Assembly: GCA_046563655.1 (NCBI GenBank) | Contig: CM102286.1 | Location: 13,020,001 to 13,084,000 of the forward strand | Source of the DNA: Yuukianura sp. NJ FZ-2021 | Lineage: Eukaryota | Length of the DNA: 64,000 nucleotides | Direction: 5' to 3' | Shown here: positions 36,601-64,000 of the stretch, piece by piece | Layout of the letters: every line of letters starts with the position of its first letter | How positions within the stretch are numbered: the stretch's first letter is position 1 | The notes under the pieces: model-generated | Databases searched by the model: none | What the model saw: the letters and a program-made list of their open reading frames with translations, nothing else | Told to the model about the DNA's origin: nothing | Translations under genes and position numbers: made by a program

Positions 36601-39600
36601 TACGTAGAGATGCTTCTTCTGACACGCTATCTTTGAAATTTTTATGTTAACTGGGCATAGATGATTGCTTTTTAGGAATCTGAATGAGTCTTTGGAATTC
36701 GAACACAACAAAGATGATTCTCGAGTGGCCAAAGAATAAGAACCAAAAAACCCAATCTAAATAGTCAAAATTCCATCACATAAAAAGCATCTCTCAGCTC
36801 CTCAGGTGAAAACAAAAAACTTTGAAAAGAAAATCCATTCAATTGCATATTACAAACAAATTCTATGTGAAGATGAGGAAAAATTCCTGAAAGATGAACG
36901 TGTAATTTTAGCCAAAAGATGAATTTGTCCGTGACCAATATTAGAAAAGGAATTCTTAACAGGACTTACTAACACGAAACAAACCACCAGCCAAGGCAAG
37001 TATTTTGCTAAAGGCTACAGACATCTAAAAAGTCTACATTTTTAGCTAGACGTGTGTGCAAGTCCCATGCAATTCCAGAATGGAATTCCTTTCAAAAACC
37101 CATTTACAAAACAATAGGATCTCCACAACATCATCATTTTGCATACCTCATCTTCCACAGCTTCCAAAAAAAACTAGACTCAGGATTTTAAATCATTACA
37201 AAATTACACCGAGTCAAACTGCTTTTAAAGATTTGAGAGCCATTCCATTCCAGTCATTCCAGAAATCCATTCCACAATGATTGATTGATGTTTGAAGGTG
37301 TCGAGTGAGAGAGCTGGTAGTATCTTGTGAACCACCTCTTTAGACAAAAGAAAATGGCGACCGTCGCCGTGAAAAACCAGAACAACTTGATCCAAAGAAT
37401 TGAATGGCGACATGCAAAGGAGCAAAACGAGTAACATCTAATAGCTTTCTTCAGAAAAAAAGGAAACAGAACAGAAAGAAAGACAAAACAAGTCCATAAA
37501 ACATCAATTAGCAAGTGGCAACCTCAACTAAAGGATGCTCAAGGAAACAATAGGACTATTAAAACAGCAGATTCTCAATGCCCTGGCCTCATGCCTCGCA
37601 GTATTAAACGATCCATCCCTTCGGGCGTTCAAATTTTGAGAGAAAAAAAAATCACTGCTACGAACTAAATCTGACTAACAAAAATTTCTAGACAAAGAAT
37701 ATGTTAACACGGTTCAAAAATTTAGATCAGACAGTAGAAAAATTTGCAGCGGTTGAAATAAGGCTAATCAGACTCAGTTGTACCTTCGACTTAATTTAAA
37801 ATTATCTGAACTCGCATTGTTCATCGTAAGCGTAATCAGTAGATTAGTATCACAATTTGTGCACTTCAACCATCTATTCACCAGTTTACATTGGTAATAT
37901 CGGTATGTGATTAACGTTAGCAACTACGTCGCTCAGTTTCAATTCATGACACTAGAAAAATACTAGACGGTTACAATGGCGTCCGGCCGGTTTGAATTCA
38001 ACCGTGTAAGCTTGAGTAGGAAAAATATGCGCAGAGTGAAATGAAAATCAAGCTCATATTTAATTAACTGCCATTTCTCAAACCCTGGAGCCAACTTTTA
38101 ACTTTTTAGCCTTCAACTATCATTAAAAGGCTGCTGAAGTAGCTTGTGGTCATCCGTACAGGGTCACATTTCAGACATTCAGACGCCAAAGATCAACTCC
38201 ATTCTTCCAAAAACATGTTTTGTTCTAGTTTTCTTCACACTTTGATCAAAGTAAAGGAGGTTTTACACTCCTATAACTCCTGATTCTCTAAACTAAAAAT
38301 CATCTTGATTTTCTGCATTCATCATCTTCTTTGGCAAGGTACAAAATTCCTCTGCCACTTCCATTTCAAACAGAGTTCATTCATTAAGCTTTTTGGCCTA
38401 GCTAATTATTCCTATTCCAATTTTTTCTCATCATTAGTTCATTACCTCTCATACTTCATCAACCAAAATATGAAAAGAAAAAGAAGAAAAGAGGTACATA
38501 ATTTCAATGGCACTTACCTCCCAATGACTGAAGACGAGCTGAGGTAGAGCCAAGCCAGAAGTTTGACTTCGAACTTCGTTAGCAAAGTCAAAACTTTCTA
38601 TAACCGGCAACTGAGCTGTCACTTCAAACATCGTCGAACCTTCCTGCAAATCCCCATGCAAAATCCGACCGCCACGCTTCCCCAGAACGGCGTACAAACG
38701 ACCTAAAAATTCACAAAAATTAACAAATTAAAATTTTTTGCAGAAAATCCAATTTTTAAAGCTCATGTTTACTTCAATGTCAAATTTTTCATCTTTCACT
38801 CCATATTTCATCCAAGTCAATTTTAGAATTTTGACAACTCTAATTTTAGAATTTTGGCGTCTTCAATTTTAGAATTTTGACGTTCTCTGAATATTTATTT
38901 TGACATAAAAATTGTTCTAATTACACAGTTCACTAGGTTCAAAACACAAAAAAAAAAGAGAAGAAAAGCCCCGAAGTGTTTTGGAAATACAGAAGCCAGA
39001 AAGCACCCTTGAAGGTTCAGCACTCCTGAAAAAAAGTTCCCTCCAGATTGAATTTTTGTAAGAAGGGGTCCCTTAAGTGCCCTCAAACCTCATTTGTGTC
39101 GTAAAGAACAATTTTCAATTCACAGTCATAAATCGTGCTGTCTCCCAACAAGTAGTTAGGACGTCCAGAACACATTTCCAGGGAAAGGTAATTTATCAGT
39201 GGTAAATTATTAGCCAAGATTAACTCCTGTCATTCCCAATGTTAACCACTAAATAACCAATCTACGCTCTTCCCTCCAAAAACACCAAGGGCCCCCGGAC
39301 CCTTAAATTCAAATCCAGTAGCAACTCTGAAACCCAACCTGCCCCTTCAACATGCGAAGATGCGGAGCAAAAAATTAAAACCAAGAATTGCCGTACTTCA
39401 AAACGCCGTAAAAAAATTCAGTAGCTCAAAATGCAGTAAAATTCATCAGCTCAAACGCAGTTAAAATTCGGTAGCTCAAAACTGGGTGTCAAAAATCAGT
39501 AGCTTCAAAATTTACAATTATAATTTTACTTTTCAAAAAATTTCCTCCTTCAAAACCATATGTAAATCCCATTTCAACCTTAACTTTTCCAAAAGTTTTA

Positions 39601-42600
39601 GTCAACCTTAAAAGTTCTAAAGCCAAGAGGTGAGCCCTTAAGCCCTATGCCCTTTTGGCCAAGGTTTATTAGAAGGGAGATGATGAGCATCTGTTTGCCC
39701 TGAACCGAAGAAAGTTAAGGTTCATCTTGCGAAGATTAATGTTGTTTTTTTCATGGATGAACCTGGAAGGTACTTTGGCTTTTTTTTTAAATTTTGGTAG
39801 ATGCTGAGGCTGACTTAAGGGCTAAAGTACCTTTAGCAGGGAGAAGATGAGAAACAAGACAAAAAATGATTGGCAACAGGTGGGAAGAGGGGAAGAAGAA
39901 GAAGATCTTGACGTTTTCGGTGGGTTTTGGACTTAACCCAACGCTTTAAGATTAAACTCCGAACATACTCCTCCCGTTTGAAAAAAAAACTTCAAGGGCT
40001 GAGGGAGGCTATTATGAATCTCTCGTTTCTCCATAAAAAAGAAAGAAAACAAGCAGCTACCGTGTTACGACCAACACACAAAAAAATTATCAGAAGCGAG
40101 AAAGTACTCCCTTAACAAAGGGGGATGAGGGATGAAAAAAATACGGTGAAATAAAAATAAGAAAGGTATTAGGCTACTGATCGACGCCAGGAGCAGGTTT
40201 AAAGAATCACCTTCAGGCACATACACAAGGAAATTTCAGTAGCAGCGACCAGCAGCAGCCCATTATCATTTAAATTTAAGGCTCCTGGCCCAAAGTACCT
40301 TTGTCACTCCAATGTTATCTCTGCCCACTTAAAACTTAAGGGAGCAAGCCCTTATTTGCTCATTCACAACATTATGTCACACAGTCACAAAAAACGACGA
40401 CTGCCTCAGACGATAAAATCTAAGGAAAAATCAAGCTTGGCCTCAAACATTACAAATCTTAACGCTTTCTAAGAAAACAACTTCTGACTTTTTTTAAACA
40501 AATAAATATAAAACCGCGTTGTTGTAATAAATTTTCATCGTTGTGTGTTTCCATGTTTCGATAAAAAACACTTGAAAAAATAGTATATTTTAATTTTACA
40601 TATAAACTTTGTTGTCTAAAAATTTTAACAAAAAGAGGGTAACCCTGAAAAACCTGTCATGTTCAAAAGCCGTAATTTTTTTCTTTAAAAATTAGTGTAT
40701 TCCTTACTCCGCCTCACTACGGATGAGGAATATTGCGACATTCCCAGGTTCTGAGGTAGGGAATTTGGGGATGATGGGGATTCAGTTTTTTTTTATCAAA
40801 AATATATGTGTCTAACTAAACTCAAGTTGAGCAGAGATGCTGGGTTTTACAAAACATCGCCAGACCCCGAATATCGCAAATCCGCAAAATTAGTTTCAGT
40901 TCACTGAATTCGCCAACTTTCCATGCATGTGATTTTCATGGAACCAGTTAGATACAAAGTAAATCGGAATTAAAATTGAATTATAAGTTGTAAACAAAAA
41001 TTTCCAACAAAAAAAAAACAATTTTAAACTCTTATTACCAAGATTTCACTTCACCAAAAGGAAATTTTAGGTATACCTAAGAGTTAGCCAGATTACATCA
41101 ACAAGAAATATTAGGTATTCCTGAGCCTTCGCTAGATTGCATCAAGAAGAAATTTTAGGTATTCCTAAGACTTATTTAGTTGTCAAAACAAGCAAAAAAA
41201 TGAAACACTAAAATCTTCGATTCAACTCAAAAAAAGTAGCAAGAATAAATTCATTTCAATTTATACTAAAAAAAATTAAACTTGCTTGTTTGCAAGGAGC
41301 AGAGGGTCAATAATTCTTACGAACGAAATCAATGAATGACGTTTACGAACTTGATTTAGTTCAAAATTCAAGTTTGCAAAATGAAAAATTTAATAATCTA
41401 CTGCTATTAATTTTCGTACCAAAAAGTATAACAATTTTTAAATGACTCAATAAGTTGGTACTTAACTTAAACTTACTGACTGCTAAGTGGTATGCTCTGA
41501 AACAAAAATGCAGGTTGCAGCCATCATCAAAATCATCTTAAATTTTCTACACTACCAAAAACATTAAACGAAGTAAAAAGTTCTTTTAAAATTCAAATTT
41601 TCACATTAATTCTATAATTCCCTCCTCTGCAATTCTGCACCCAGTGCTTTCTGTTTCTGTAGTACTTTTTACAATGGGATTGGCATCACCTTGAACATTT
41701 TAGAAATCAAGCCTATGATCAGACGGGTTCAATTTTCCCCAAGCCCACTTTCTTATACACTTAAAGTTGCGCCTACCATTCATTCATAAAATTCATTCAT
41801 CAGGCGGAATAATACAGGAGTTGCCTCTTGTAATAATCCACTGCAACTTTAGACTCCGCAAGCATAAAACGCCTTTTTGGAAAGAAATGATGTAAAACTC
41901 TGCAAAAATCAATTCTTTTCAATCAATTCAAGGTCTAAAAGGTCCCTCAATAACACAAAACCAGAAAACCATTTTTTCTACTCTGCTGAAAGCTACATTT
42001 GCAAACCCGCACCCCTCCAAGACACGATCCCAGTAACCTCACACAATAAAGTTACTTTCTGCAAACAATGTTTCTTGCTCAACTTACTATATGCACAGTA
42101 TATTTGATCATGACGACAACATCTACGTTCATTCAATTCACAGATGACTAGAAGCAATGAATGAACATGATGGACATCTTCATTCATTTCCATTCTCACA
42201 AATCACAATTACTCAACCTCACCCACAACCATTTTAAAGCAACTCTGCTCCAAACACTTGCAGTTTCCAAATTCAAAATCCCGCAATTTACCTCTAATTC
42301 AAAAGAAAAAAAAACGCAAAAAACAACAAGATTTTTCTAGACATTGGAAAATCTCAGCAAATAGTAAATTTTGAAAATTTCTCGTGTACCGTGTCATTTT
42401 CTGGCTAAACCGGAAGTTGGCCGTTCAAACAAGCCTTAAAACGCATCTTAAGAAACAACGGTTCTCACTTACAAGTTTTTGGGAGGCCATGCGCATGTAA
42501 ATATTTATTTTTCCAAAAAAGCTATTGTCAAAAGCCTAAATTTATTCTCAAAGGTAAAAATCTTAAGAATTACAGGTGCCATTTCCCTGTTACACAAAGA

Positions 42601-45600
42601 GCAAACTTCTCCTCCCTCCTTTTCCTTTTTCAAAAAAAGAAACAAACAAGAACAATGTATTTTTCCTGTTTTCAATTTTTTCAATTTTCACTGAAAACTC
42701 TGAAAACTCACAACTTTTCTAAGATTGTAAAACTCTATGTGCTTTCTTTCCATTTTTACTACAAACGGGGTCTCGTACAAATAAGTTCTTACAAATAGAA
42801 ATGAAAGAACGTTTCCATTCATAAAATTTTCAAAAGTTCTACACTTCCTTTTGTCCACGTTCCAAAATCAATACTACTCCTCACCATTTTCAAGATTTCA
42901 ACAGGTGAACGCAACTTCAACCGAAAAAAAAAACTCTAAATCTGAATGGAAATGGAAAGTAGGACTTTTCAAGAAATTTCGTTTATTTTTTTCGGCAAAA
43001 GAAAAGAAAACAAAATTTTTGAATTTTTGGAAATCCTATTTGCAAAAAATGTATTGGACAATTTGGCAGGTAGAATAAGTCAAGCGCTAGTTTGAATTTA
43101 TAGTTTTAATTGAAAGGAGAAGTTTTAGGTCTAGATTTGAGTGATTTTAGGTGTAAAGGCTTGAAGTTAGACCAGAACTTAGGTTGAGAAAGACTTTAAC
43201 CCAGGGCAGAAGGTAAGAGGGATGAAGGAAGAGATGACGCCGAGGGATGAGGGATGATGCGATGAGGATGGAAGATGCGAGAATGGTTTTTGGTCAGCAG
43301 AGAAACGCAGAAAGAAAAACTTCTTTCATTGAACACTTCCAAAATAAAACTAGGAGCCAACTTCACTTTCCTCCACCACTTCATTCGCACTCAACGACCC
43401 AGTCGAAGAAAGCATCTCTCCCAATTGAGTTCAAATTCTGCCTACAAAAGAAAGTCTATTGACATCTTTCCAAAAATAAAAGCGTTTGAGAGTAACCTCC
43501 AAAATTCAAAGTGTGACAGTGACCCATATTGTTCACAAATCAAAACGCCGAAATTAATTATTGTTGTAAACTTGAAAACTAAAAGTGGATTTCTGAGATT
43601 TACGAATGAACAAAGTGGTTTCACTGGCCAAGTGGAAAATGGACTGAAAATGAATTTGATGACACGGAATTGTGCATCACTGGGGCACTTCGTCTACACC
43701 CTCCTGTTTTTCCTACTGTCCAATACATTCAATCAGTTAACCCCGTTCAGTACAATGGTTACGGCAATTCCAACGCCGCAGATACTTGGACAGAATTTAC
43801 TGCCCAAAACGTTACCAAGCATACTTCCTCCAAAAATTATATATGCAAATGGGGTAAGTTGACATGTCTACTCACTATTTTTTGAATCCACCGGAATCAT
43901 CCGTAAATTTCAAGGTTCGTGAACAAAAAAAAACTTTTCCTACAACAGGTGGTCCATTAACTGGAAGTTTTAAAATTTGTTTGAAAAAAAAATCTGCCTT
44001 TCTGTGGTAATTTTTTGCATGTAAAGTAAATCAGATTGGTGCAGAAGAATTTCGGAAACCCTGAGGTATTGGACAACCTATTGTAGGAAATACAATTTGT
44101 TGTATTTCGGTTGTCAAGGAACCTTGGTAAATTTGTTGGAGAGATTATAAGTCATAATTACAAAAATACTTGCAAATATTTCTGCCAAAGCAAAACTCCA
44201 ATGTTTCCTTCTGATTCCATAATTTCCACATTTCAGAAAACGGAAGAGACGTTACCAGACTGTAGTCCAATGTCAGTATGCAACAAAGTTGATGTTTACG
44301 ACAAGCCGTGGATTGAAAAACAGTGCAAATGCAAACAGTCACAGTGCTCAACGTCACTTTCTCCATCTGATGGATTTACCATAATGGATAGAACGAGATA
44401 CTACAAGGTTCGCAAATACAAAAATAAGTTAAACAACTAGTTTGGGTGCAATTCTAAATCATAATTTTTGTATTTACAGCTTTGTGAGCCAGTACAAATA
44501 TTAGCCAAATGTCGTTACTTTCGTGATGTAACCTGGACATTGGTTACAAAAGGTGACAACTTGACCCAACACATAGTCCACTGTGAATGCCCTACAGACT
44601 CCGTAGCATATATGATCAAAAGACAAGCCTACCACACAGACGGACACGAAGTCGGTTTCAAATACTCCTTTGCATGCTCACCCCAAACTGTAAGTTACCC
44701 AATTGTTTGCAGAAAACAAAAATTTGCTTAAATTTTAGAACAATGTAAAAAAAATCAAAAACAAAATACAAAACGAAAATGTTCCAAAAAAGCAGAAAGC
44801 TGCTGAGAAAAGCTAACAAAAAAACACTAAAATATTTGGCAAAGCACTTTGTCACATCGTCCCAAAAAATTTTCTTTCGCATTTCAGATTCCATTTTTTC
44901 GATAAATAGTCATTTTTTGAAAATTTTTCAGAGACTGCTATGTCAGCGCAAGGAGCCCTGTCGCCTGTTCTCTCTAAAACGACGGTCGAATATTACCGAC
45001 GTAAATACAAGTACGCTATGTCACTGTCCCAGTGGATTCACATGTCCCAGTCATCACCAAGACGCAGGAGTCATCACTGGCAAATTCTACCCCGAAAACA
45101 TGGTCAAAACATTCTCCGGCTATTGTGTTCAGTAAGGAAATGGGCCCTTAAGGGCCCAGCAGCCACTACTTCCCTGAATCAATCTCGTCCAACACCTGGC
45201 TACACACCTCCCTCCAACGAAATCTTAGGAGAGCCCTTAAGTCCCCTCAACAAAACTGTTCATCTGAAAAAAACGAAATCTGGACAGAAATACTCAAAGG
45301 AGAGACCATGTGGAGGACTTTTTCAAAATGCAACAGGCTGCTGTGTGGACTTATTCAGCAAATGAACAAACAACGAGACAGCTGGATTCCCGCGGTTCCT
45401 TACTCCGACTATCTGTACTCTCCATTCACAACTTTTTCAAAAAAAATTATTTTTTGAAAATGTTTTTCCTCAACTGCGTAGCCAAGCCAGGAACCCAAAG
45501 GCAGATGACTCGTCCCTCCAAAAAGCCATCAAGTGCCACTACCACCATAACCAACATAATAGCCAAAACCAATTGTACAAAACTCATATTACAAATCATA

Positions 45601-48600
45601 TTTTTCAAAAATTTAGAAATGAAAATACGAATCATTTTTTACAAATCAAAGTCCAAAATTCAAGATAATCAAGGACAACAAATCATCTTCTTACAATTGT
45701 AATGTGAAGACAAAGTGAAGCTGTGGTGCCTTAAACACTAAAACTTCTGAAAAATTCCTCTATAAATGCTCAATCATCTAAAAGACAGTAGACAATCCTC
45801 GTAACTTTCAAAGTTCATAGGCATTTCAGTTGTGATTTTTTCGTAACTGAACATTCTGTGTATTAAATGGAAAATGAAATTATTTAAACACAATAAAAAA
45901 AATCAACTCCAACTTAATTCATTGCTCATTTTATATTCGTCTTCTGAAGCGTATTTTATAAAAACCAGAATTTTTCAAAGATATGATGAAAAAATTTTTA
46001 CTGCAACTACTGCATCCTAACTTTTCCAAATAAAAAAAAAGTGTTTATAAGACTCATTCGTTTTGAAAATTGTCAAAATTTTCAGCTCGATTCCTTCTTT
46101 TAAAAAAGAAAAAAAAAGAAGTATCAAGATGAGCGAGTTTTGGAAATCATGTGCTGCAAATTATTCTAATGATACTTTGAGACAAAAATAAACGCAAACA
46201 TTCGCAATCTGCAAAGAAAATTCAATTTTTTACACAACCAGATTAGTATGACTACAAAATGATCGAAAACAAATTCCAAGTGTTGTTGATTGTCTCGTGA
46301 TCAAAATTTTGCACCCCCCAAAAATAAAAAAACTGGCGTCCTCTTTTGCTAAGAAACATGTACAGTGGATTCTCTAAATAAGGGAAAAAATCACGATTGG
46401 AGGATTGGTAGTAGGCGCCTCTCCCAGTACCGTAAGATTTCTGGTAAACGGTCAGTTATATGGAATTTAAGGCTAGGAACACCATTCTAATGAAAATTTC
46501 CTGTTTCGAAGTTCAGAGTATATAATTAATATTAATATACATAATATTCATATATTAATGCTAATTATATGTGATATCTATATACTAATCAATATTATAT
46601 GGTATATTATATGCAAATTGCGTTGTGAATGTCACCCTTATTAAACAGGTTATATAATATAATATATTATATACAGTGCGCTGTTGCGCAGGTTGTGCGC
46701 TGTTGCGCAGGTTGTGCGCTGTTGCGCAGGTTGTGCGCTGTTGCGCAGGTTGTGCGCTGTTGCGCAGGTTGTGCGCTGTTGCGCAGGTTGTGCGCTGTTG
46801 CGCAGGTTGTGCGCTGTTGCGCAGGTTGTGCGCTGTTGCGCAGGTTGTGCGCTGTTGCGCAGGTTGTGCGCTGTTGCGCAGGTTGTGCGCTGTTGCGCAG
46901 GTTGTGCGCTGTTGCGCAGGTTGTGCGCTGTTGCGCAGTTTGTGCGCAGATATATATATAATATATATATATATTATTAGTTAATTTTATTTAATTATCT
47001 AATTACTTTTGTTTCGCACCAAAAAAAAATTAACCAAAAAAAACAATCGTAAAAAATAAGCCGATAAACTGAAACATACGTTCCCTCCAAAATTAAAACT
47101 TTACGGTACCGCGACTTCGACTGAAAGTGAGAAAGAGGAGGAGCTCCTGTCCCTTATTTAGAGAATCCACTGTATTGCCAAACCGTATTAAGCTCTGCGC
47201 CATGGACGGAGAACCATCCACTGGCAGTTTAGCAAACCAGCGGCGTTGATGTACATCAGCATCAATAGATGCCCTTATAGTCACGTTTTAAGTTTTAAAA
47301 CTTAATTAATTTCATTCCACATTTCAATTTTCTTACATTTTACAATTTAACAATAACTTCAATTAAAGTAAGAAAGCCTCAAAGAAAATTTAACCCCACG
47401 ATCAGTAATAAAACGCTTGCCCCACATTTTCGAAGTTTAGAAAATTTAAAGTCATCGACACATTCCCGTTCTCATCGTTTTCGCAATTAGCAATTTTTAA
47501 TGTACACGTTAATTATTAAATTTTAACAAGAGAAAAGTGAAACTCGAACCTTGACCATCACAACAATAACTTCATAAAGTAAATCAATTTTTAATTGGTT
47601 AAGAAAGTCAAGTTGTGGAACACTACTAAAACACAACTTTCTACAAATGTTTTGACACTTAATATAAGAGTCAAAATTTATGAAGGGAGAAACTATTTTT
47701 ATTTCCTCTGCCTAACCTCACCATGACCTCCGCAAAGTCAAAGTTGTCCTCACTCGAAATAATCGTGAGAACTTACTTGGTCCATTTTACACCAAATCAC
47801 AAAAAACAATTCACAATAGAATTTCTAACATTGTAAGTCGCGTGACGTAGGGTCATAAGTCATTTAAGCAAATTTTTTTGACAAGTTTACAGCAAAATTC
47901 TCCGGAGAAAATAGTAGATAAAAAACATTTCGAAATTACTGTTTCAACTATAGCACAATTTTGGAATTGGAACAACAAATGTATAAAAAAAATTTTAAAT
48001 CGCCTGAACAAAATTTCTGGGTCAAGAATTTGCCAAAATCGTTAAACAAAAAAATTTAATTCAAACTAGCTTGTTTCCTATTTTTGGCTTTAATTTTTAA
48101 ATTAGTCTCATCAACATCACGAGGATGTGGTAAATTCTTTCAATTTGTCCTTTTTGATCGTAACAATGAATAACAAACACTCGAAAACAGGCAGGACCTA
48201 CTTTCTTCCATATTTCGGAATTTTACGAAGCCAAATTTTGTAAAACTTTTGAAAAATTTAAAGCTTTTACATTGGAATTTTCGAACACAACTTTCCTCCA
48301 CTTCTTTCATTCTTCAAAGCCGCCTCAAACAAAAGAATTGGCGGATATTAAAAACTTAAAGTCTGGTCGAGTAGCGGCAATTATGAATTTCTTCTTGAAT
48401 TACAGGAAGTCACCTCAATTTTAAAAAAATGAAATTTAAAATAACTTTTCTTAATCAAATTAAAAAAAAAGAAAGCATCCAATTTTCCAAATTAAAAAAA
48501 TTTCCATTTTGACATTAAATCATATTACGACAAAAGAAAACAATAGAAAATGTCAACAACTCCCAAAACGGAAGAGAAACTTGAAAGTTGAAACGAAACA

Positions 48601-51600
48601 AAAGATTTTTTGATTAAAACTTTTCATTTCACGAAATTTTAAAAATGAAAGTTGGAGACAGTGACCTGTTCATGACCTTTGCTTGCTTGATTATAGGAAT
48701 TATCAAGTTTTTGTCACTTTCTGAGCACGAGCGTGTTCAGCAAATGAAACAAATCAAATAAAATGTTAACCTTAGCAAAATAAATGGATTAGGAACATTA
48801 TATATGTAATTTGAGAGACTTTGTACATTTTGTGAAATTGGAAAGCGAAAGTGCGTGATGCACTTTTCAACTCTCAGGTGAATCGATTCAATCAACAACA
48901 CTTATAAAACACATTTTTCAAGTTCACACACACGACACATGTAAACAAAAAAAAGCTTTTTGGAATCAAAAGTTAATGAGCTGTGCATGTACCGCCTTAA
49001 TTTGCCCTTTAACGTTCAAGTTCTATCAAGATCCGATTTCACATTGATTCTTGTCATTAAAAGCTATAATATAAATTTGACATTTGATATAATCAATAGT
49101 ATCAAAATTTCCAAATTCTCGTGATTCTCATCATTATCACAATCGAAATCAAGAGAGAAATTTCAAAGTCATGAACACGAGCGACGGATGAAAATTGAAG
49201 AAAAAGTTGATTTTTGTCAATTACGTGCGAACACCACTTTATATTCCACACTTTTGCAACACTTTCACTAAAAAATGAAATGGAAATTACGTTAAAAAGT
49301 ATTTTGCAAAGTAATGCCAGTTTCAGTGACATCCAATTGACATTTTTTTAATTAGGCATAACGACTTCCTCAAAATTACGCAACGGTACTATGATCTTCA
49401 AGTTTTTCTTTTCAAAAAAAGGTAAAAACTGGATAGCCATTGTCAAGTGGCAGAAACGGGTAGTATTAAACAGCTAATTTATTCCACGGTTGTCACCAAA
49501 ATGTTTCGCACAAAAAAAAACACACATGAACTGTTTGTTTAAACTGATGCTTCCTGCACTCAGCTAATCATCATGAACTTTTCACACATTTCAAATTATG
49601 TGCAAGAAAAAGAAAGGTAATCTGCCATGCGTAAATTTCACAAAAAGTCCCCAACAAAAAATGTCTACGCACAACTTCTGTTTGTAAAATTTCAAACTTT
49701 TGAACCTAGAAACTGGAAAATATGCCCTAAATGTATTTTAAATTTCATTTTTCACGGGTTGTTCAACATATCATGAACTTCAAAGTCCAGTCACAGACTT
49801 TTTATGCATTTGAAGGGATTTGGTAGAAAACTTCGTGAAGTTTGTACCACCACCCAAGTTTTTCCATTCCCTAGGTTTACTCTAATCAAAAATTTATTTT
49901 CTCTTCCCTCAAAATTGGAAAATAGATGAAGATCAAGGAAAGACAGATTGAGAAAAGAGGCTCGAAGAAGATGACTTGGCACTTCACTCCCGTAACCACA
50001 TTTATTCTTCTTTCAATCTACATAGTGTGAACATCTCAAGGCGTTTTGTCCACAATAGCGTCCTTCATGACTCTCAACTTACTTGTTATGTGCACAGTAA
50101 CATACGAATTCGGATCCTGACAAAACAATCTTGTTCTACATTTTGACAAGTATATTGCCAAAATTCACTCAATTCAGTAGTGATCGACAGGAGGAAAAAC
50201 ACAAAACTGAACCAAATAATTTCTGCGGCTGACAAACCGATTTTGTCCGACTCTCAGCATGGAGCTTAACTTGATCCTACGTACATTTCTACTAATTACA
50301 AGTATTTTTATGCAGAGTTCATTTTCAGCAAAATCAAATTCAAAATCAACAGTTGTCGCCGAATCGAAGCCCAACATAGCTCCAGTTCCACCAAGTACAT
50401 CATCTCTACCAATTTTTCCATCAAAATCAAAATGGAAACAAAATACTATGACCAAAGTGAGTATAACCAAAGTTCCAGACGACTCAAGAACCTCAGCAGA
50501 GCCATCGAGTGTCACTGGAAAATCCGGAACGCCAAAGGTAAGAACAACAAAAATCAACAAAACACAAACTTACTACAAAAATTTAAAAAAAAAATTCAAT
50601 TCTTTTTTTCTCATTTCAAAATAATCTTCCGTTTCAATTCGGTTACCAATAATACTACAAGAGACATTGACATGACACTTCCGTGAGATTGTGGACCGCA
50701 TTTCGGATGTGGTTGACTAATACCAAAAATATTCCAAAATCGGCAATGCTTAGAAAAGTTTTTTTAAAATTACTTTTCAATTCCTGTTCCCAAAATGCAG
50801 GAAAGGGAAAGATCAAATGCGTGATCCGATCTATCGTTTTTGTCTTTTGCGGTAAACCGCCAACACTTTTCGAATTTTTTCACCGATTTGAAGAAACTTT
50901 TCAGAAAAAAAGTAAAACACCGCATCCTTCTCGTCTCCTTCTTCTGTAGCCTTGAATGAACTTGGTTCCCCTTCGTAGCCTCTTAAAAGTTCATTGAAGA
51001 ACTCGAGAGAAATTAAATTTTCTTCCGAATCCCTTGTGAACTCTGCTTGCCAACAAAACCACAACCAACTTCCTTCACTTTACAACCGAACCCAAACAAA
51101 TAGACATTTTTATCACTCTCAGCCTTAATCCTGATCTTTCAAAATTAACAACATCTCTTTTTCCCGCAAATCCAGGTTAACTTGTGAAAATTTGGAGTAT
51201 AAAACGACAATTACACGTAGGAGAAACCACTTATAGTGCATGAGATTTTTTTAAAACAGGAAACGATCTCAAAATCCTCACTTTCCGAAAATCTCGATTT
51301 CGAAAGAATGAAACAAAAAATTCCTCAGGAAAATTCCTAAGGGTAGCGAAAGTAATTTGGCGAAATAGCAGTATAAAGAAACCACAAATTTAAAAAAAAA
51401 CGTTAAGAAAACAGCAAATTCCATCAAACGAATACAAGAATTGCGAACTTGCACAAATTCTAAATTGTTATGATTATGCTGCTTGCCGTTCGTCACGTAT
51501 TGCACTTATTCCTTTCTTTCCCCAAATCCAAAAAAAAATTGGCAAAACACCAAAAAAGAGGTGTCAAAAAATTTCACTCAGTTTCACTACTAACTCATAA

Positions 51601-54600
51601 TTGGCTTTTTAATTCTTCAAGTAACTGAACTAATTAAGAAGACTATTAGAAAACACTAAAAGCTCATAGTTATTAGCCAGACAAATTAAAAGTCGCAAAA
51701 ACAATAAAAACTAACGTACTCGAGGACTCGAATAATATATTGTAAACTTACTTCTGCACGACAAAAACTCAGGATTCATCAACGAAACAAGTAAATTACC
51801 CTGTCGTGTCCGGCATTTAAAATCCACATTTAGCCAAAAACTCCATTCAAGAAAGGACAAAAAATAGATTGTTAAAATCGTCTCAAACTTTCCTTCAAAC
51901 ATTTGAAAAATTCTAGGTACACATACCCAAGCAAGAAATATACATAAATTTTTAAATTAAACATTTTTTTTTCAAGATTTGTGAAAAATTTGTCAAACAT
52001 TTTTCCAAGGGCACCGCAAAAATTTGTTTTTCCAACCAAAAAAGTTTTCTCTCCAACGCAAACTCCTAACTCCGATTAAATTCGCACGTTTCTTCGTTTC
52101 GATTTACCTCAGAGTCAAAAACTGTTTTGAATATTTATGCGGAAATTGAACTCAGACAGAGAGGAAGTCCCGTTAAAAATAAACGTCGCCACATGAAACC
52201 TTTGGAAATTCTGTCAACCCCTGCGTCTTTTCCCGGAATTACTTTCACTCCATAAACATCTATCTAAACTCAAACTCACTTTAACACCGTTAGAACCAGA
52301 ACTGCTTTAAAACACTTCCTGAATCCCGTGTGTCATCCCTGCATCAAATTATTTCAAACATTCCTACAAAAGCACGCTTGTATTTAAATTTAAATTTTAA
52401 AATTTAGACAGCAGGGGATGTTACAATTAGAATTATCAAATTTAGGAGTACGTGACATTTTCGGGCACGCGAAATTTTCTCTCCACCGTTAAACCCAATA
52501 AATCACAAATCCAAGTTGACTTTTTTCACCTCCCATTTTAAAAACCAATAACAATTCATGCACGTTCCGTTTCTGCAACTTTCCCCAAAATAACAGTAAA
52601 TCAGCAGTAAATAATTCCCGAAATTCAACAACCAAAATAGCAAAAACCAAACATAAATTTGTCAACTTGGGCCAACTACAACAATGATAAGCATAAGAGA
52701 TTTATATTTAAAAAGTTTTTATGAAATTTAAAACAAAAAAAAAGTGCGAAAGCAAATCCGGAGTTGTTTATACAAATTGTGTCAAAATCAAATTCCAGTT
52801 AGCAAAGAGTCGATCAGCCATCAGGTTCTACCACTACAAAACCAGTTGAGATACAGTTCGCAAAGGACGTTACGCATTTTGAAACCGGAAACACAAGTCT
52901 TGTAAAAAGACGATAATCAGTGTAATGCTGCAAGACCGGGAAGATTCAAAACTGTATAAGCTAACAGCCTCACTCGAACAGATTCGCAGCTAACCTTGGA
53001 TAAAACGATGCTGTTTGATTCACCAAGACCAAGTTAATGATCCTCTATCCCTTTCACAAAAAGCTTAAGTAGTAAAAGGCTGGTTGCTGTTGCTAGTAAC
53101 GTAATAACAATTATTAGTAGCGGCACTTTCTTCCCCAACTTCAACTCAGTTTTACATTTTACCCAGAGAAAAAAAACAAAACGATCTCAAAATATCTCTT
53201 TCCACTTCCACCAAAACACTACAATTTTGAGGCAACTTTGATTGCAACTCCGTCCTTCCCCATTTCCTTTTTGTCAAGAAAGTGGAATTTTTCGTAGTAA
53301 AATATTCTCCTGAAACCTAGACATAAAGCACCGTTTTTGCTACATGTTTCACCAAAGGGCGTTTTACAACCTTGAAATTTCCAAAATTTAATGTTGCATC
53401 AACGTTTACGTAACTCAAACGGGAAAATGCAAAAAATTGTGCAGAAATTCCAAATTCTGCATAGTTTTACACTCTCAAACGTTCAACCCGAACACAGTTT
53501 TCAAAAGAAAAATGAGACAAAAACTTCAAAAACCTTTAATTTTTTCACCTTTGAAATGCCAACAAGCGCCGAAACGCGCTGTTACATAAATCAACAAACA
53601 AAAATTCCTTTTCAATTTTTGCAACTTGGAAGAAAGCTTCCTCACTTTACGGCACTTTCATGCCGTAAAGTGCGGAATCTGTGTTGTTCCACAGATTTTT
53701 ATGCAACAACAAAAAATTGTCACAAAAATCTGTTTTTAGAGCAATTTAAAAACTCTGCTACCTAATTCCACTTACTAATTTCTTTTCTGACAAAACATAA
53801 ATATCCATTTGCTTCATTTACTCTAAAAACAAAAGCTACCTCACGCACAGCAAAAAGCAAAGCAAAAAACTTGGGGAAAATTGTAAGACAAATAGAACAG
53901 AAAATTTTTTAGACAAGTTTTTGACGTTTTAGGATTTCAAACTGTTTGAAAATAACAGAGAAGACCACCTTGCGTGCCTATTTTCTGTCGTGACCATTAG
54001 GATTTAATAGTGTTGTCATCTTCTTCTTCCAAAAAATACAATGGCTTGTGACGAAGTCAGTTCTACCAATTCAACAATACGAAATGATCTTCATGCATAA
54101 GGCCATGACGAATCTCCCAGCGAGTCTAAAGTTAAACATTGCCCTTATAGTTTTCGCTGCGAGAGAAAAAAGCTTCCATGCTATGCATATCTAGGTCTGG
54201 GTCAATCAGTCCCAATTTTTATAGGATTTAGGTGTTGTCTAGCACTTTTTCTAGTGTTTTACCAACCATAAAATTTTTTTGTTACGGAATGAGGATGTGT
54301 AGAACCCAAATTGTAAAAATAAAACAGTATAACAGTGAATTTGGTTCATGTGTACAGAGATTTCTATCTCAGTCAAAGCCGTTCAAACATAATAAAAATA
54401 TGGTTAGTGTTAAAAATATATTCTAAAGGATGATCCGAGACGAATTGACAATTGAAGAGAACAAAGGACTTAAAAAAATAATGAAGTCGTAAATTATATA
54501 ATAAATGTCTTACACAATTTCAAATTAAAAATCTCTATTTAAGTAACGGGACATTTTACCTACATTTCGTATCGATCGTGCCTGTTTGCAATTTACCAAA

Positions 54601-57600
54601 TTATAGACCGGTAGCAACAATGGTGACAGCTGAAAAGCATGATGCCATGCTTTTTCGCCAAAATTACATAACTTTCGCATGTGCCAAGCCCCGATAACAA
54701 TTTCGTGTTACCTGCATTTTGAAAAATGCAGCTAACAACTGCATTTTTCGAACCAAACCATTCGAAATTTCAAAAAAAAAGTTGCAAAAAACAACAATTT
54801 ATTGCTTTTTTGCAGCAATCATGGCTAGCTGTTGCAAGCGCCGTAGCACACTCGGCTGCCGCAGCTTCCGACAATGGACCACAACAAATTCCTGGATCAG
54901 ACGACACGAAGCCTACAAAGTACCACTACTACCCGCATAACCAGCATCTCTACCTACTTCCAGAATGTGCTACTCAGCAGGTATACTTAAACTAACTTTA
55001 ACTTAGGAAATGTTTGTAAAACTAAGTTAGTCACCCTGACCCTACCCTAGAATTAAGTTTTCAACCTAGCATTATGTTTAACCGTAAATCTGCACGAATT
55101 CTCACTAAAACGGACTTTTTTTTAACCTAGGTCTGCAGTGCTGTATACCTTCGACTAAATTACAGTCAGCCATTATGTGCCTGTCCCAAGACGCATCAAC
55201 CATGTTCTGTCAGTACCAGAACTGATGATCGACATACAATTCCACTTGTCACCGGATCAAACGCACAGGTAGGTCAAATCAATTGGATTAACATATCTCT
55301 CATATCTCCATGTATAGAAAATGAAGAGCTGCCAAAACTTCAGTTCCTCAATACAGTAACATTTACCGACAAAAACTCCTTTACAGAACAGATTTGCACG
55401 GAATTTTGTAGGTCAGAGATCCGTGCTCTAGTAAAATAGAAAGAAACTGTAGCAGATCCAATCAAGCCGAAAAAGATGCATTTCTCGCATGACACATGTA
55501 ATGGGCTACAACGAAAATAGCAAAAATAGGCGTTTTTTCTCTTTTGCCGCAACCACAAATACAAATTTAACCTCACGCTTTCCCACGCCCTTGTCACTGT
55601 CTGTGTCAGTGTCACTGCCAGTTACCTATAAAAATGCTTGACAAATTTTTCGAAATGCTGCATAAAGTAACGACAACGCCCTTCCCAAAGGCTACCTGAC
55701 ATCTCCAATAAATTTAAGCCTAAAAATTCCAAAAAATTGAAACTTATAAAAAAAATTAATTCCTTAACCGATTGCCGATTTATGTAAACATTTCCTCAAA
55801 AAAAATTCTAATCAGGTCAAAAACGCCGTGAATTCCAAATTCAGCAAAGGAAATTTAGTAGTCAATTACTGCAACAAGACAGGGAAATTGAAAAATATGG
55901 CATTAGCAACAAATTGCGGTGCTTGATCTCCATCGTGACTCAAGGAGTGAACATGTCTTGTCACTACTCTGACATTGGAATTCTCAGTTGAAGAAATACT
56001 AATTTACCACAATAATACATCCTGTAGCAACAGTTAAATTACTAAAATAACAATTCAATTACAGTAACGTTATAAGTTATAACGAAAGAAAAAAGAAAAT
56101 GAACAAAATTGTGATTTAAGATGAAAATCATCCCTCAAAGAAACGCATTTTTCATTTGTACTCTACTTTTCCATCGAAAACAGAAAAAATATTTTTGAAA
56201 TTTTGTCAAATTAGAAAAAAAATTCTGATGCAGGTTGCCAGAAAAATTTTCCTTTTCCTTTCAGTAAGATTCAACTCCTTCAAGTGCAAAATTACCACAC
56301 GCTACAAAATCCAAGTTTATTCGCATCTCTGCATCCATCGTCATCAAATTCATAATTTTTGTAAAATCTGTGCATATTAAGTTATTAGATTAACCCAACT
56401 TTTTTCAAAATCGTACATTTGAGTTACTGAATTTTGAAATTTTTAGATCCTAACACTGGTAAAAACTTGTGAGCGAACACACGAAGTACGAGAATGTCGT
56501 GCACCCAAAGATTGGTCAATTTTGGCTCTTCAAAATAGCCGAACCGGAAAGGCACATTATCTTGTAATTTGCAGATGCCCATCCCCTGGATATCTAGGTA
56601 ACGCTGAGTGATGCCCATTTCAAAAATTAAGATTTCAAAATTATTCAAAATAAGTGCAATTTTTACACGATTTACAGAGGGGCCTATAGCTCACAGTCAA
56701 CCAGCATACGCAAGAGTACCGGGGATTCGCGTTTACGGCATGACGTGCGTAAGAGAACCGACACGCGGAGGCAGAGCCCCAAGATTTTTAGGAAAAGATA
56801 CAAACTCTAGTAAGTTTTTGAAGTATAAATTTTGAAAAATGAGAAAAATTCAAAATTATGTGCATTTTTTCATTCTTTAGTTTCAGGCATACCTAATCCT
56901 CCTTTTCCCTGGGAAAAGTTGAATCCATTTCTCGAAAGAGTTGCACAAGATTTAAGTTGAAGCTCGGACAAACAATAATAGAAAGTCCGTAGTTCACTAC
57001 GTAAAATACCGTGCTTAAAAATTGCAACCAACACTGAACCAATTTTCAATCTTCTGAGATTTTCAATATCCAAAATTTTTCAAAATCTTGCCAACATCAA
57101 ACGTCGGAGCGAACACACATGACCGCTTTCGTTGTTTCGTCAATTCACATTTTAACACTAAACTCGCTAGAAATATTGACTTGAAATTCTATTTCTTGAA
57201 CGAAAAAGAAAAGAAAAAGTTTTCTAGAAACTTCTAGAAAATGAGGAGCATGAATTTTGTTGTGAGTAAACGTCGTAACGTACGACTGCTAAGAAATGAA
57301 TGTAAGTAAAAGAATTAATGTACAAATCTAAAGGGAAAACGTCTAAAAGGAATACACAATGTTACTACTGCTTTAGTATCAATCTGAGACAGACTCTCAC
57401 AAAAGATAGGATTAAATTGTCCATGTTATAGTTGAAATTGTTAACTAACATAAGCAATTGTTAAAACTCTAACCCTTGTTGTTTTTATCTTAAGTATAAC
57501 CCATTGATTCAAAAAAAAAATTAAAATGAATTAATCAAGAACCAAGACTAAAGACTGGCTGTATCAAAACGAACATCGCCAAAGTGCTACACATCGGAAA

Positions 57601-60600
57601 GTTCAATTCTACATGCGGCAATATGAATATGAGTTGGCAAATTATTGAAAATTTGCTTTGCACTTGGTTTTTCCGTTTGCCAAAAAAATCATTCCAAAAA
57701 CCTTACTCATGAAAATCTCTCTAAAAACCAGGGTCTTATGGAAATATTTTTCAAAAAGAAAAACCTTTGTATGTAATAACATGAAATACTGAATTTATAT
57801 TTGAAGCTACAGACGCATCAGGATACCATGCATCCTCTCTAAATAATTAATGTCGGAATACAAAAATGCAAGGTAAAAAATACAACTTGCAAAGAAGCTG
57901 CGTGAATGGAAATTTTTCAAAAAATAAAAAATAAAAGCTCCCAAAACGTGATGCAAGTGAGACGATTAAAAAACAACTTAATTGAGTTATGGTAGAAAAA
58001 GCAAAGATAAATAAGCGAAAGTAATGAGAAAGTAATGATAAAGAACTTTTCATCTTACCTAATACTTCACTGTTGACTTGGATGTTGGAAGAATACATTG
58101 CAGTCATCAGGCGCTGCGGTTGAGCTTGGAAGGCTTTTCGACACCCATCTTTGACGGCTGACATAATTTGACCAGAAAATGGTCCAAAAGGCTGATTTGA
58201 CGGAAGTTCATTTTCAATATCTTCGCAAGTCCATTCTTCTACTTTGAAGGCAACGCCTCTCATTGGCTCTTCTGCCAGTGGACCAGCCAACGTAGCAAGT
58301 TGGAAACCATTGACGAAGTTGCTTGCATACGCATACAGAACGTTTCCAGCGTTAGAGTCATTGTCACCAAGAGTACTTTCGTCATTTGTTGCCTGACGCC
58401 AAAATGTAGCCGCCCGGTTTGCATTGACATAGTTCAACAAAATGTTGGGTCCAGTATGATGTGGTCCAAAAGACCAGATATGGTCCACAGTTTCAACTTT
58501 CCACCCTCCAGCTTCACAAGCATCGCATAATTTCTTCCGGAACTCGGCCAACTTTTCAGCCGTAGCACCCACGGTTCCTCCTCGTTTCATCAACTTGAGT
58601 AAATCTGAGAATTCGTCAATGGTTTCAGTGATTTCTGTTGGTAAAGGCACAGCTCTGATTTTGATTGTTGATTTCTTGTTCGCTGTGTGCTGAAGAATAA
58701 GTCCGGGATCTGTGGCTTGCGGTTGTGAGGTATTGGAAATATCACGGTCACGTTCTCGGCTTGGATCCGGTTGTTTAGGCTTTGAAACCACATGAGTTTG
58801 AATGGCTTCATTCACCATGTCAACTTTTGGAGGTTCCACTATGGTCTCACGGAAGGGAACAATTGGCGGTGATGCAGAAATTTCAACTTTCGCGAATCTA
58901 TTAAACATATGAAAAAACACATTAATCCGCGTTTCTTCTTTCTAACTTACAAGTACTTGTTAATAGTAGCATACAGTGAAAATTCTAATCGGTGTACCTT
59001 ACCTTTCTCTGAGGTCATCCAAACATCGCTGCAGATGAACTTCACCAGCAGTAACAATTACATGCTCCCCCGTTTCCTGAACAAAAACTTGCACGCACGG
59101 ATCTGCCTGATTCAGAAGCTTCAAACCCAGACGCAATGCTGCCATGTCAGCTGTATATCGCGGTTCGACTGCTACCCGAAGGATAGGCTCCACCATGAAC
59201 GTCATGTCAGTAAATGGCGGGCAAGCCAAAGTGCTTGAAATTGTCGCTGTTTTCAAAATATGTTCTTCCAGACCCCCAATACCTACAATTAACGAGTATA
59301 AATGAGTAGTACATATCAAGGTTACTATAGCAACCAATCTACAAATAGTCCACAAATTTAAGGTGTAGATTTTGTTTTTTTTTTTTTTGTTTACCCACCT
59401 TGAGTACATATACTCATTTAAATTATATAATAAAAATATGTTCATTATCATTACTTACCAAAAATGCAACCGGCAGGTACTTCATCCAGACTCTCAAGCT
59501 CTCTTCCCATCAGTAAATAGAGGTGACTCAGTTCAACCGTAGTGACATGCTGGCCAGACTTAAGATCTTTCAAGGTCACTCCAAGTTCAATTCCTTCCCC
59601 GTCTGGATGCTGCAAAATATTCTGCTATTAGAAACCTATTTTGGAAAACTAGACGGAAATAGTTAATACTCACCAGCTTCTGTCCAATCAACGGATCGTA
59701 CTTTGGCCCGAGTACAAACAAGCGCTGGCCTTTACGAACTGTACCACTGTAGGCTCTGGCGAAAGCTATAAATGACAATTCAGGTTTACTTTCCACTGCC
59801 TGCCCACCAGCAGGAAAATGGGCGTCTGGAATTCCTGCGGCAGCTTCTTCGTCAGCAGCCACCTCCTGTTCAGTTCTATTCTGCCTGTCAAGGATCCGTT
59901 GCCTCGCCTGCTCTCGCCGCATAGAGAGCTCTGCTGGGGTTAGGCGTTTGGGCTTATTCTCCGGCAATGAACTGCTCTCTGTTGCAACCATTTTTGAAAC
60001 GAAGATGATTGTAGGAGCTTCGTTTTCACTTGAGCATGCTAAAAATGCCAATTTTAACAACTGTGACTCGGGAGGCAATTCTTGAAATGTTCTTGATTGT
60101 GACTGCATAAGTCGTTCCACTTTGGCTTCAGTCAGTTCAAGTGGACTTGGGAGTTGCGAACAAACCATCTCTAGAAAACAAAAATCAGCCTAAAACGTGA
60201 AACATGAATTTTGATAAATTCTAACGCTCGAGTATACCGAGAACTGATTTTGAAAGTGGCAACCAACTGCTCATCACTGATTGTAAAATGGCTTTGAAAT
60301 CGGTTTGGCGTAAATCACGAGCGGAGACCTGGAGACCGAGATTGGCAACAATTTTCTCCAGCATCACCTTATCCTATGAAAGATAGCTAAGTATTAACAC
60401 TTCGCCAAGTTTTTACTTATTTCATTTCAATTTGAACTTACTTTTCGCACTACCACTGCATCGTAAATCGTCCAGATATTCTCCAGAATTAACTGCACAA
60501 ACAATGGTTTCTTCGCTTTTTCTTGTGCACCCTTCATAATACGTTTCAGTTTGGAGTTCAAATAGAAGTCTCCCCAAAGTGTTCGATTCAGTACGGCTTT

Positions 60601-62971: not shown

Positions 62972-64000
62972 ATGAGCTTCGCCAACTTTCTACTACGTAG
63001 CAGATTTAGTACAGCTCCGGCTCGTCTGCCACCACTTCTGCAGTTATCGATGAAACCATACCCAACAGCCCTATCGATTCGGAGTTACCGTAATCTTAAT
63101 CTGAATCTAATGCAAAATATTGCCAAATCTAATACAGTACGGATACCGTCGTTACGTAATTCCATGTCTATTCAAGTCAACCTAGTTCGGAATTACAGCC
63201 TTGGTCCTCGACCTCCTGCCAGCGGTGGGCCAGGCGTTGGACCTAAATTCGAAAATCAACGAATTGCTACAAAATTTAGGCAAATGGATGGGATCCCACC
63301 TAGCTACGACCTAATTTACAGACTGAACTTTACTTCTCCCGTAGTCTACATTCAAGTTTTGAATATCATGGGCATACTTGTGGCAACTCTAGCCGTCTTC
63401 AGTTTGCTACTAAACGATGAGGATGGCCAGCGGAAGGCACCGGGAGATTCAGATTTACTGAAGACTTTTGAACGTGAAAAACCCGTCATGAATGAGGATG
63501 CACCGGAATTTGTCAAACGATATCAGGCTAACCTAGACTTGCCAACTCCCCACCCGAACGAAATGAATCACCTAAGCCTGCGTGAACTGTCGATACTATA
63601 TGGTGGATTACTTGTGCTAATGGTCGCCCTCATCCGTCTCCAAAGAACGCTGCCTATTCGGCTCTATACTAGTCCGTCAGTAAGTTACCAACCTAACTTA
63701 ATCATGTTTGATTTTAAGAGGACCTTATATTCACTGCAGTTTTACTATTTTCAGGGTCATAGCTACGCCGTCTTCTATGGTCATATAATTCCATCTCGTA
63801 CTACAAAACGTGAATTTGTCGCAGGAACTGTCAAACGCGTGCTCCGTCAGTCACCTATGCTTAGAACAGATTCTCTATATGCAGATGGTACTGGCAAACA
63901 AATGCTTCTACTCGACTACTGCTTCCGAAATCCATCTGACATGAACTACATCCTTGGAATATCCAATACTAAGCTCTATAAGGATGACGACAGTGACTCC
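62972..64000 (+). CDS. Probable mitochondrial membrane protein with two TM helices (TMEM70/TMEM186/TMEM223-like); stop lies beyond the window
   Basis: ORF from ATG 62972 stays open to the window end and is absent from the ORF track. R/S/L-rich N-terminus without acidic residues (MSFANFLLRSRFSTAPARL...), then DGIPPSYDLIYR, two hydrophobic segments and PIRLY; intron 63680-63754; C-terminal FRNPSDMNYILG. Family assignment is by resemblance only. Confidence 0.7.
   Translation, partial: MSFANFLLRSRFSTAPARLPPLLQLSMKPYPTALSIRSYRNLNLNLMQNIAKSNTVRIPSLRNSMSIQVNLVRNYSLGPRPPASGGPGVGPKFENQRIATKFRQMDGIPPSYDLIYRLNFTSPVVYIQVLNIMGILVATLAVFSLLLNDEDGQRKAPGDSDLLKTFEREKPVMNEDAPEFVKRYQANLDLPTPHPNEMNHLSLRELSILYGGLLVLMVALIRLQRTLPIRLYTSPSVSYQPNLIMFDFKRTLYSLQFYYFQGHSYAVFYGHIIPSRTTKREFVAGTVKRVLRQSPMLRTDSLYADGTGKQMLLLDYCFRNPSDMNYILGISNTKLYKDDDSDS

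Follow-up and report, generated by a model that had tools for sequence, protein, structure and literature searches.

In the springtail Yuukianura sp. NJ FZ-2021, a 64,000-nucleotide (nt) stretch of contig CM102286.1 (assembly GCA_046563655.1, positions 13,020,001 to 13,084,000 of the forward strand; hereafter the window, whose own coordinates are used throughout) contains the housekeeping gene EFL1, and two genes for secreted-type proteins lie antisense within its tenth intron. One of these genes is argos, and the other (gene 2) is identified by its sequence as the orthologue of dsx-c73A (Dsc73). In a genomic regulatory block, the enhancers of a target gene sit in the introns of a housekeeping bystander. 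We consider it likely that the trio is an ancestral arthropod host/nested locus acting like a small block of this kind, in which Capicua-controlled argos enhancers would extend across the last two introns of EFL1.

The spliced model of EFL1, built from window coordinates, runs on the minus strand from 61675 to 33696 in 12 exons and encodes 1,067 amino acids (aa) without an internal stop, and all of its 11 introns have GT-AG borders. Introns 1-9 measure 64-176 nt each, and only two introns are long: intron 10 (58058-38703; 19,356 nt, phase 1, after aa 945) and intron 11 (38517-33879; 4,639 nt). The features of the locus are as follows.

58059..61675, minus strand: EFL1 exons 1-10 (aa 1-945); exon 10 matches PF25118 and PF03764 (EFG_IV)
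38703..58058, minus strand: EFL1 intron 10, host of both nested genes (spliced model)
38518..38702, minus strand: EFL1 exon 11, 185 nt, EFG_C (PF00679); single copy
33879..38517, minus strand: EFL1 intron 11, with six Capicua octamers at 34595, 34674, 35118, 36091, 36834 and 38376 (spliced model and motif scan)
33696..33878, minus strand: EFL1 exon 12, the last coding exon (spliced model); single copy
43650..45135, plus strand: argos (giant-lens), 262 aa, 17 Cys, four exons at 43650-43853, 44237-44407, 44480-44689 and 44932-45135 (spliced model; PF11581)
50259..56960, plus strand: gene 2, the dsx-c73A/Dsc73 orthologue by sequence, 312 aa, 10 Cys, six exons at 50259-50537, 54816-54980, 55131-55268, 56447-56597, 56678-56809 and 56887-56960 (spliced model)
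41779..42950, strand not applicable: Capicua cluster of seven octamers, five of them in ~410 nt, 0.7-1.9 kb upstream of the argos ATG

Both argos and gene 2 therefore lie wholly within one predicted EFL1 intron, on the opposite strand. The rebuilt models reproduced exactly the coordinates that an earlier note on this DNA, made from the sequence alone, had given for intron 10, argos and gene 2, and agreed with its estimate of about 60-180 nt for introns 1-9; the long intron 11 was absent from that note. The closest named relatives of the window EFL1 include springtail EFL1. When the 98.7-Mb genome was searched, EFL1 exons 10, 11 and 12 gave one full-strength match apiece, together with weaker matches of 33-55% identity that resemble EF-2-family paralogues, and argos was found at one locus. 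Because EFL1 exons 10-12 and argos are each confined to a single locus, the two halves of EFL1 can be joined only across the intron-10 interval. The EFL1 model terminates in KQRFWRH (33696-33725, minus strand), whereas full-length homologues, among 78 ends tallied, close with a conserved tail of KQRTL type whose last residues are basic; this odd end may reflect a small indel in the assembly or a genuine change. Seven open reading frames (ORFs) of 114-144 codons in introns 10 and 11 had no Pfam match, and an Rfam scan of the whole window returned nothing.

The assignment of argos is straightforward. PF11581 matched exon 3 at 104.7 bits and exon 4 at 59.4 bits (curated cut-off 25), and the protein has a hydrophobic N-terminus, or signal peptide, followed by 16 Cys arranged 6+4+6, corresponding to three two-finger domains, domain 3 included. 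The exon for domain 2 is 83% identical to argos of Orchesella cincta, the closest named relatives are springtail proteins, and a quick IQ-TREE search grouped the window argos with those of springtails at 100% in the Shimodaira-Hasegawa-like approximate likelihood ratio test (SH-aLRT). Drosophila Argos (PF11581; PDB 3C9A/3CGU) likewise has three domains, and Capicua sites lie near both genes. The window form differs in being compact, with 262 aa and short introns, and its Capicua cluster lies upstream, in host introns, whereas that of Drosophila lies inside argos.

Gene 2 encodes a signal peptide, a Ser/Thr-rich stretch, Argos-like domains 1-2, a basic motif and a short C-terminal helix; Drosophila dsx-c73A shares the signal peptide and the Ser/Thr-rich N-terminus. 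A search with exon 4, which has one match in the genome, gave 114 candidates, 111 of them relatives; these include springtails, insects and an amphipod, and all the named ones are arthropod. In at least eight insects, proteins that carry the name dsx-c73A or doublesex cognate 73A match this exon at 70-82% identity, although Drosophila Dsc73 itself was not among the relatives found with it. The whole protein scored 316 bits on a profile of dsx-c73A relatives and 28 bits on an argos profile. On this sequence evidence, gene 2 is the orthologue of dsx-c73A.

Gene 2 is also an Argos homologue, and a paralogue of its neighbor. Its 10 Cys correspond to the 6+4 of Argos domains 1-2, and HHalign aligned the dsx-c73A-family and argos-family profiles over 114 columns with 97.8% probability (E 1e-12). 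An AlphaFold model of a dsx-c73A relative (P0144) has a mean predicted local distance difference test score (pLDDT) of 63.5 and is poor over the first 80 residues; when it was compared with the PDB by Foldseek, Argos alone fell below E 0.001 (E about 1e-5), and a wide structure search placed Argos 3C9A first (Z 10.0, root-mean-square deviation 3.3, 116 residues aligned), the next best fold match being conotoxin Tx33.1 (Z 4.1). As a single sequence, P0144 found Argos at E 0.0011, and in the ESM Atlas, which we treat as a lead only, the first match scored 0.91 and 20% of members carried Argos. The dsx-c73A profile had no match among PDB sequences, PF11581 did not match any of five of the six exons of gene 2 scanned singly, and none of its 111 relatives carried a precomputed PF11581 assignment. 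The two nested genes are 27% identical over 106 aa, and the introns within their shared domains lie at different positions; these differences rule out a recent tandem duplication and suggest an old duplication of an argos-like gene.

What might this second protein do? Argos holds Spitz in a clamp formed by domains 2 and 3 (PMC12514838, section 2.6). Domain 3 is missing from gene 2 and from all 91 relatives that have a complete domain 2. After domain 2, 90 of these 91 have no Cys and one has a single Cys, a basic RxxR-type motif is present in 81 and an FPW-like motif in 74; from their sequence, these two motifs are perhaps a processing site and a tail. Because gene 2 lacks domain 3, which is half of the Spitz clamp, an Argos-style clamp is unavailable to the monomer, and gene 2 is probably not an EGF sponge. 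Passages on Dsx-c73A in PMC4197698 and PMC4883753 describe the Drosophila protein as secreted, at its strongest in the trachea, the pharynx and the epidermis that forms trichomes, and propose it to be an apical-matrix protein; Andrew and Baker 2008 is cited for it in PMC4197698, PMC4883753 and PMC5569996, and a bioRxiv report (10.1101/2020.11.01.363994) records that pan-neuronal knockdown was lethal in one screen. These dsx-c73A passages relate Dsc73 neither to Argos nor to a host gene. We expect that gene 2 would serve the apical matrix or cuticle rather than act as an EGF trap. Shavenbaby motifs number 10 in the window, three of them in the first intron of gene 2, which is a weak signal.

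The earlier note had described gene 2 as a paralogue of argos, which the HHalign, Foldseek and wide fold searches bear out, and had implied a second Argos-type inhibitor, a view that gave way to the dsx-c73A identification. That it is a second antagonist of EGFR ligands, co-regulated with argos, seems to us improbable. The fold of domains 1-2 shared with Argos, the signal peptide, the tandem position and the very high conservation of domain 2 in this family would all suit such a role, but the binding of Spitz by domains 2 and 3, the lack of domain 3 throughout the relatives, the report of the fly protein in apical matrix, and the scarcity of Capicua octamers, with only one in the 5.1 kb that precede gene 2 and two inside the gene, all speak against it.

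How old is the nesting? We examined gene pairs chosen by eye from the match lists, which is not an exhaustive set, and regarded two genes as adjacent when they lay within 12 accession or locus-tag numbers. By this measure, which attests linkage and not nesting, 15 of the 19 species comparisons (springtails, insects, a spider and five ticks) were adjacent, as follows; for seven further species the genes had no more in common than a scaffold length, Allacma and Homalodisca were uninformative, and the comparisons included no malacostracan or myriapod pair.

EFL1 and argos: Folsomia, XP_021968290/294; Laodelphax, LSTR007603/007598; Araneus, GBM48499/48507; Dermacentor silvarum, XP_037563173-175/178; Rhipicephalus sanguineus, XP_049269412-418/420; D. 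variabilis (species inferred from the accession series), XP_075537138-139/140; D. andersoni, XP_050045268/280; R. appendiculatus, MTO96_022248/022251
EFL1 and dsx-c73A: Ephemera, 009921/009920; Ladona, 008814/008813; Ranatra, 006259/006258; Loxostege, 005545/005547; Ischnura, XP_046400556-557/560
argos and dsx-c73A: Orchesella cincta, 00851/00850; Zootermopsis, KDR07075/07076

More direct evidence came from a scan of metagenomes, which gave 29 argos loci, most of them too short to inform. In one locus (L016), EFL1 exon 12 is followed by exon 11, beyond which argos lies antisense, about 1.9 kb away from the acceptor. In another (L032), EFL1 exon 11 is followed by antisense argos about 2.3 kb away and then, on the argos strand, by an exon of dsx-c73A type, which scored 42.7 bits on the dsx-c73A profile versus 15.8 bits on that of argos. 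The acceptor and donor positions of exon 11 in both loci are those of the window, and no exon 10 sequence lies between exon 11 and argos in either. Both contigs look mite-like: in the quick tree, the argos proteins of L016 and L032 fell in a group with horseshoe crabs and Tropilaelaps (97% SH-aLRT), that of L032 beside Panonychus and that of L016 beside Tropilaelaps and Dinothrombium. For Drosophila, one table row in PMC522868 places an element 49.4 kb inside the start of CG33158, which the earlier note had given as the fly EFL1 orthologue that contains argos, and 14.1 kb inside the start of argos; this row is consistent with argos nested in CG33158 but is no proof of it.

A further trace was found in the EFL1 homologues themselves. 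Among the best 120 of 1,059 matches, 79 models are full length, 38 stop at residues 938-957, and three stop at intron 11. The 25 named models among the 38 comprise one springtail, 15 insect models, six spiders, two ticks and one mite, and none of the 11 named non-arthropods among these 120 is broken; the model of Orchesella dallaii stops at the same intron-10 site. Such breaks mark an intron at this point that gene finders often fail to cross, and do not bear on its length or content. Several models near this site are unusual in other ways. Ten mostly mite-like EFL1 ORFs (P0177, P0181, P0184, P0204, P0221, P0228, P0247, P0255, P0256 and P0257) are uninterrupted between about aa 75-120 and aa 946 and end at the intron-10 site, as if, judging from their sequence, the other introns had mostly been lost and intron 10 retained. 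RefSeq isoforms of Ischnura, Galleria and Pararge (P0174, P0485, P0219 and P0239) carry a novel tail right after exon 10. A trypsin domain fused at the intron-10 site in an Ixodes scapularis model (P0164) and a chitinase domain fused after the C-terminus in a Strigamia model (P0222) are probably annotation artefacts.

The regulatory part of our proposal concerns Capicua. Passages of PMC4684324, PMC4287436 and PMC3911485 give its binding octamer as TGAATG(A/G)A and argos as a direct target in the fly, where it is established that Capicua repression of argos is relieved by EGFR signalling. The window contains 20 such octamers versus a shuffle mean of 10.6, and 20 was reached in none of 100 shuffles. 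Within 10 kb upstream of the argos ATG, which served as the reference point rather than the transcription start, there are 13, seven in intron 10 and six in intron 11; 40 further stretches of 10 kb from this contig average 1.1 octamers and never exceed 4, and the first 33.6 kb of the window has two. The strict octamer ranks joint first among 7,001 8-mers. The cluster at 41779..42950 is, from its motif content, a candidate EGFR-responsive enhancer. Just upstream of it, at 41052-41174, lie three spaced copies of a 35-nt unit with a period of 44.

Because this cluster was first noticed by eye, its replication in other loci is the real test. The replication set comprised 14 of the 29 metagenomic argos loci (12 under 1.8 kb and three beginning inside the gene were excluded). 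Upstream, as counted from the first matched exon and therefore possibly including argos intron 1, these loci hold 53 octamers in 48.1 kb versus 6.5 expected; downstream they hold four in 40.2 kb versus 4.5 expected. After close sites were collapsed, eight of the 14 were singly below p 0.05, and L016 has six octamers in EFL1 intron 10 and nine past the EFL1 stop codon. When single-base variants were compared, the consensus G at position 7 was the most enriched (21 versus 3.1 expected), and, across 88 dimers of tetramers, enrichment in 7-8 of 15 loci was confined to the four phases of the Capicua motif, whereas the next dimers reached 2. A microsatellite origin of the octamers was rejected, since 13 octamers remain in the window, and 48 of the 53 elsewhere, when sites less than 12 nt apart are collapsed. 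Su(H), ETS and Grainyhead motifs showed no clustering in the window. At the level of motifs, these results suggest that Capicua control of argos is pan-arthropod. Motif clusters are not enhancers in themselves, and we infer from sequence that the springtail sites would act as argos enhancers.

Several observations weigh against the proposed block. EFL1 was present on only 2 of the 29 metagenomic loci, neither extending to exon 10; L030, whose argos groups apart from those of hexapods and chelicerates, has no EFL1 within 10 kb on either side of argos, and L022, L029 and L033 have none in about 4 kb upstream of it. Four of the 19 species comparisons were not adjacent: in Tachypleus, one of two argos copies is on the EFL1 chromosome but 1,207 numbers away; in Lycorma, the genes share a chromosome with accessions far apart; and EFL1 and dsx-c73A are on different chromosomes in Periplaneta and on different scaffolds in Sipha. 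One EFL1 homologue (P0210) matches through the intron-10 site and stops at intron 11, and in the P0195 cluster the match continues through both intron sites, as seen on contigs of 5-16 kb; this read-through suggests intron loss in some lineages, and from these sequences such loss of intron 10 is probable. With regard to the octamers, two non-consensus variants are mildly enriched (15 versus 3.4 and 13 versus 5.3), the termite loci L025 and L027 each have three inside argos and none upstream, and the mapped argos enhancers of Drosophila, in the accounts cited above, lie within the own intron of argos. To these are added the use of accessions as a measure of linkage and the two reference points for upstream counts, as stated above. 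Of the earlier note's proposal of an ancient nesting, the adjacent accessions and the DNA of L016 and L032 uphold the substance, and Periplaneta and the probable intron losses show that the linkage is not universal; its idea of a regulatory landscape in the host gene gains support at the level of motifs in introns 10 and 11, with a putative enhancer role.

How might such an arrangement have been kept? It is conceivable, but clearly less probable than the block that we propose, that the genes are passively trapped: an old nesting would persist since breaks in an essential gene are lethal and a gene-bearing intron cannot be lost, and the Capicua sites would be ordinary argos-proximal elements. 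This account requires no extra assumption and explains the age equally well. It also fits the fly enhancers inside argos and the several apparent escapes (Periplaneta, the read-through EFL1 models and L030), and TipE genes have likewise escaped nesting in some insects, according to PMC3240667. It leaves unexplained, however, the six octamers past EFL1 exon 11, in intron 11, and it must also accommodate the nine that lie past the stop codon in L016. Octamers beyond exon 11 and beyond that stop codon point to a putative regulatory domain interleaved with host exons. That the arrangement is an assembly artefact, for example a false inversion between inverted mobile-element copies at about 32.1-32.7 kb and 46.4-47.2 kb, is very improbable. 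Such copies, 99% identical, do bracket EFL1 exons 11-12 and argos; yet the present orientation yields an open EFL1 of 1,067 aa and the same order as in L032, the EFL1 exons are single-copy, the O. dallaii EFL1 model breaks at the same site, and argos and dsx-c73A are consecutive in O. cincta.

Under the regulatory block model, any break within the block would disrupt EFL1 or detach argos from the enhancers that serve it, and losing intron 10 would remove argos and dsx-c73A. Because of both kinds of damage, the trio would have been retained since before the chelicerate-mandibulate split, with occasional escapes. The nesting is apparently common to the springtail, insects, mites, ticks and spiders. 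We also entertain, as a speculation that we think doubtful, a stronger version, in which the 3' end of EFL1 has been a platform of Capicua-controlled argos enhancers since the arthropod stem or earlier in protostomes, and Dsc73, the two-domain paralogue in the same intron, uses its near-invariant domain 2 to bind a conserved extracellular partner. If this were true, the partner would be an EGF-type ligand, bound by a Dsc73 dimer, or a matrix protein, and cuticle secretion would be tied to EGFR feedback.

The locus resembles known systems in part. In the genomic regulatory block, as here, a developmental target, a housekeeping host and long-lived microsynteny are combined with candidate sites in host introns, and the conserved linkage of target and bystander was found here in the 15 comparisons and in L016 and L032. 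Unlike in such blocks, the target lies wholly inside the bystander, and the candidate sites here are motif clusters. The TipE cluster, as described by Li et al. 2011 (PMC3240667), is nested in a host intron and stable across insects, with escapes, so that both systems have a paralogue cluster inside one intron. That nesting was dated there to after the split from crustaceans, whereas the EFL1 nesting is apparently shared with chelicerates and is therefore apparently older; unlike TipE, the EFL1 locus is accompanied by a conserved cluster of repressor sites. PMC2330155 reports that overlapping protein-coding genes are mostly species-specific.

Each of the genes, nested clusters, regulatory blocks and the two-domain fold of the dsx-c73A family are already known. 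For the last, Khilji et al. 2025 (PMC12514838) treat the Cluster D proteins of the 2FTX fold as undescribed and give in supplement 4 a two-domain example, XP_068622463.1, which is dsx-c73A of Battus philenor; the fold relationship has therefore already been published, without the name. Neither the text nor four text-form supplements name dsx-c73A, and those supplements mention neither EFL1 nor synteny. In mainly open literature, with FlyBase (where the fly nesting is probably visible) outside the search, we found no publication that describes this nesting or how old it is, names the Dsc73-Argos paralogy, or reports a pan-arthropod Capicua cluster.

The remainder of the window contains other genes and a repeat. 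A MITE-like element (miniature inverted-repeat transposable element) of 0.7-0.8 kb occurs as two inverted copies, 98-99% identical. It is flanked by TA, has terminal inverted repeats and contains a 19-nt tandem array; one copy lies within EFL1 intron 10, between argos and gene 2. Its copies and the neighboring genes are located as follows.

about 32056-32737 and 46362-47172: the two MITE-like copies
within 1-24720, minus strand: what we take to be a casein-kinase-1-like gene
about 7.2-19.5 kb, plus strand: furin-like subtilase (PF00082); ORFs 14959-15600 and 15779-16393 resemble alternative 3' exons of this gene
about 20.4-24.6 kb, minus strand: family-B DNA polymerase, probably delta (PF00136)
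30168-31204, plus strand: secreted-type gene rich in Gly and His, with a composition like that of cuticle proteins; it faces the 3' end of EFL1 and has no Pfam match
62972-64000, plus strand: ORF divergent from EFL1, about 1.3 kb from the EFL1 start; its product has a leader of mitochondrial type and hydrophobic segments, and Pfam gave no convincing match

If the nesting is indeed common to springtails, insects and arachnids, it is unusually old, and it offers a defined locus for asking what preserves such arrangements. Dsc73, a fly matrix protein without a Pfam family, gains a fold and an origin, and the anonymous two-domain Cluster D gains the name dsx-c73A. Of the EFL1 models examined, about a third (38 of the best 120) end at intron 10 and lack the last domain, and the isoforms that end after exon 10, if real, would be transcripts that terminate in the giant intron without that domain, a possible cost of hosting. 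Fly alleles, deficiencies and association hits in the introns of CG33158 may act on argos or dsx-c73A.

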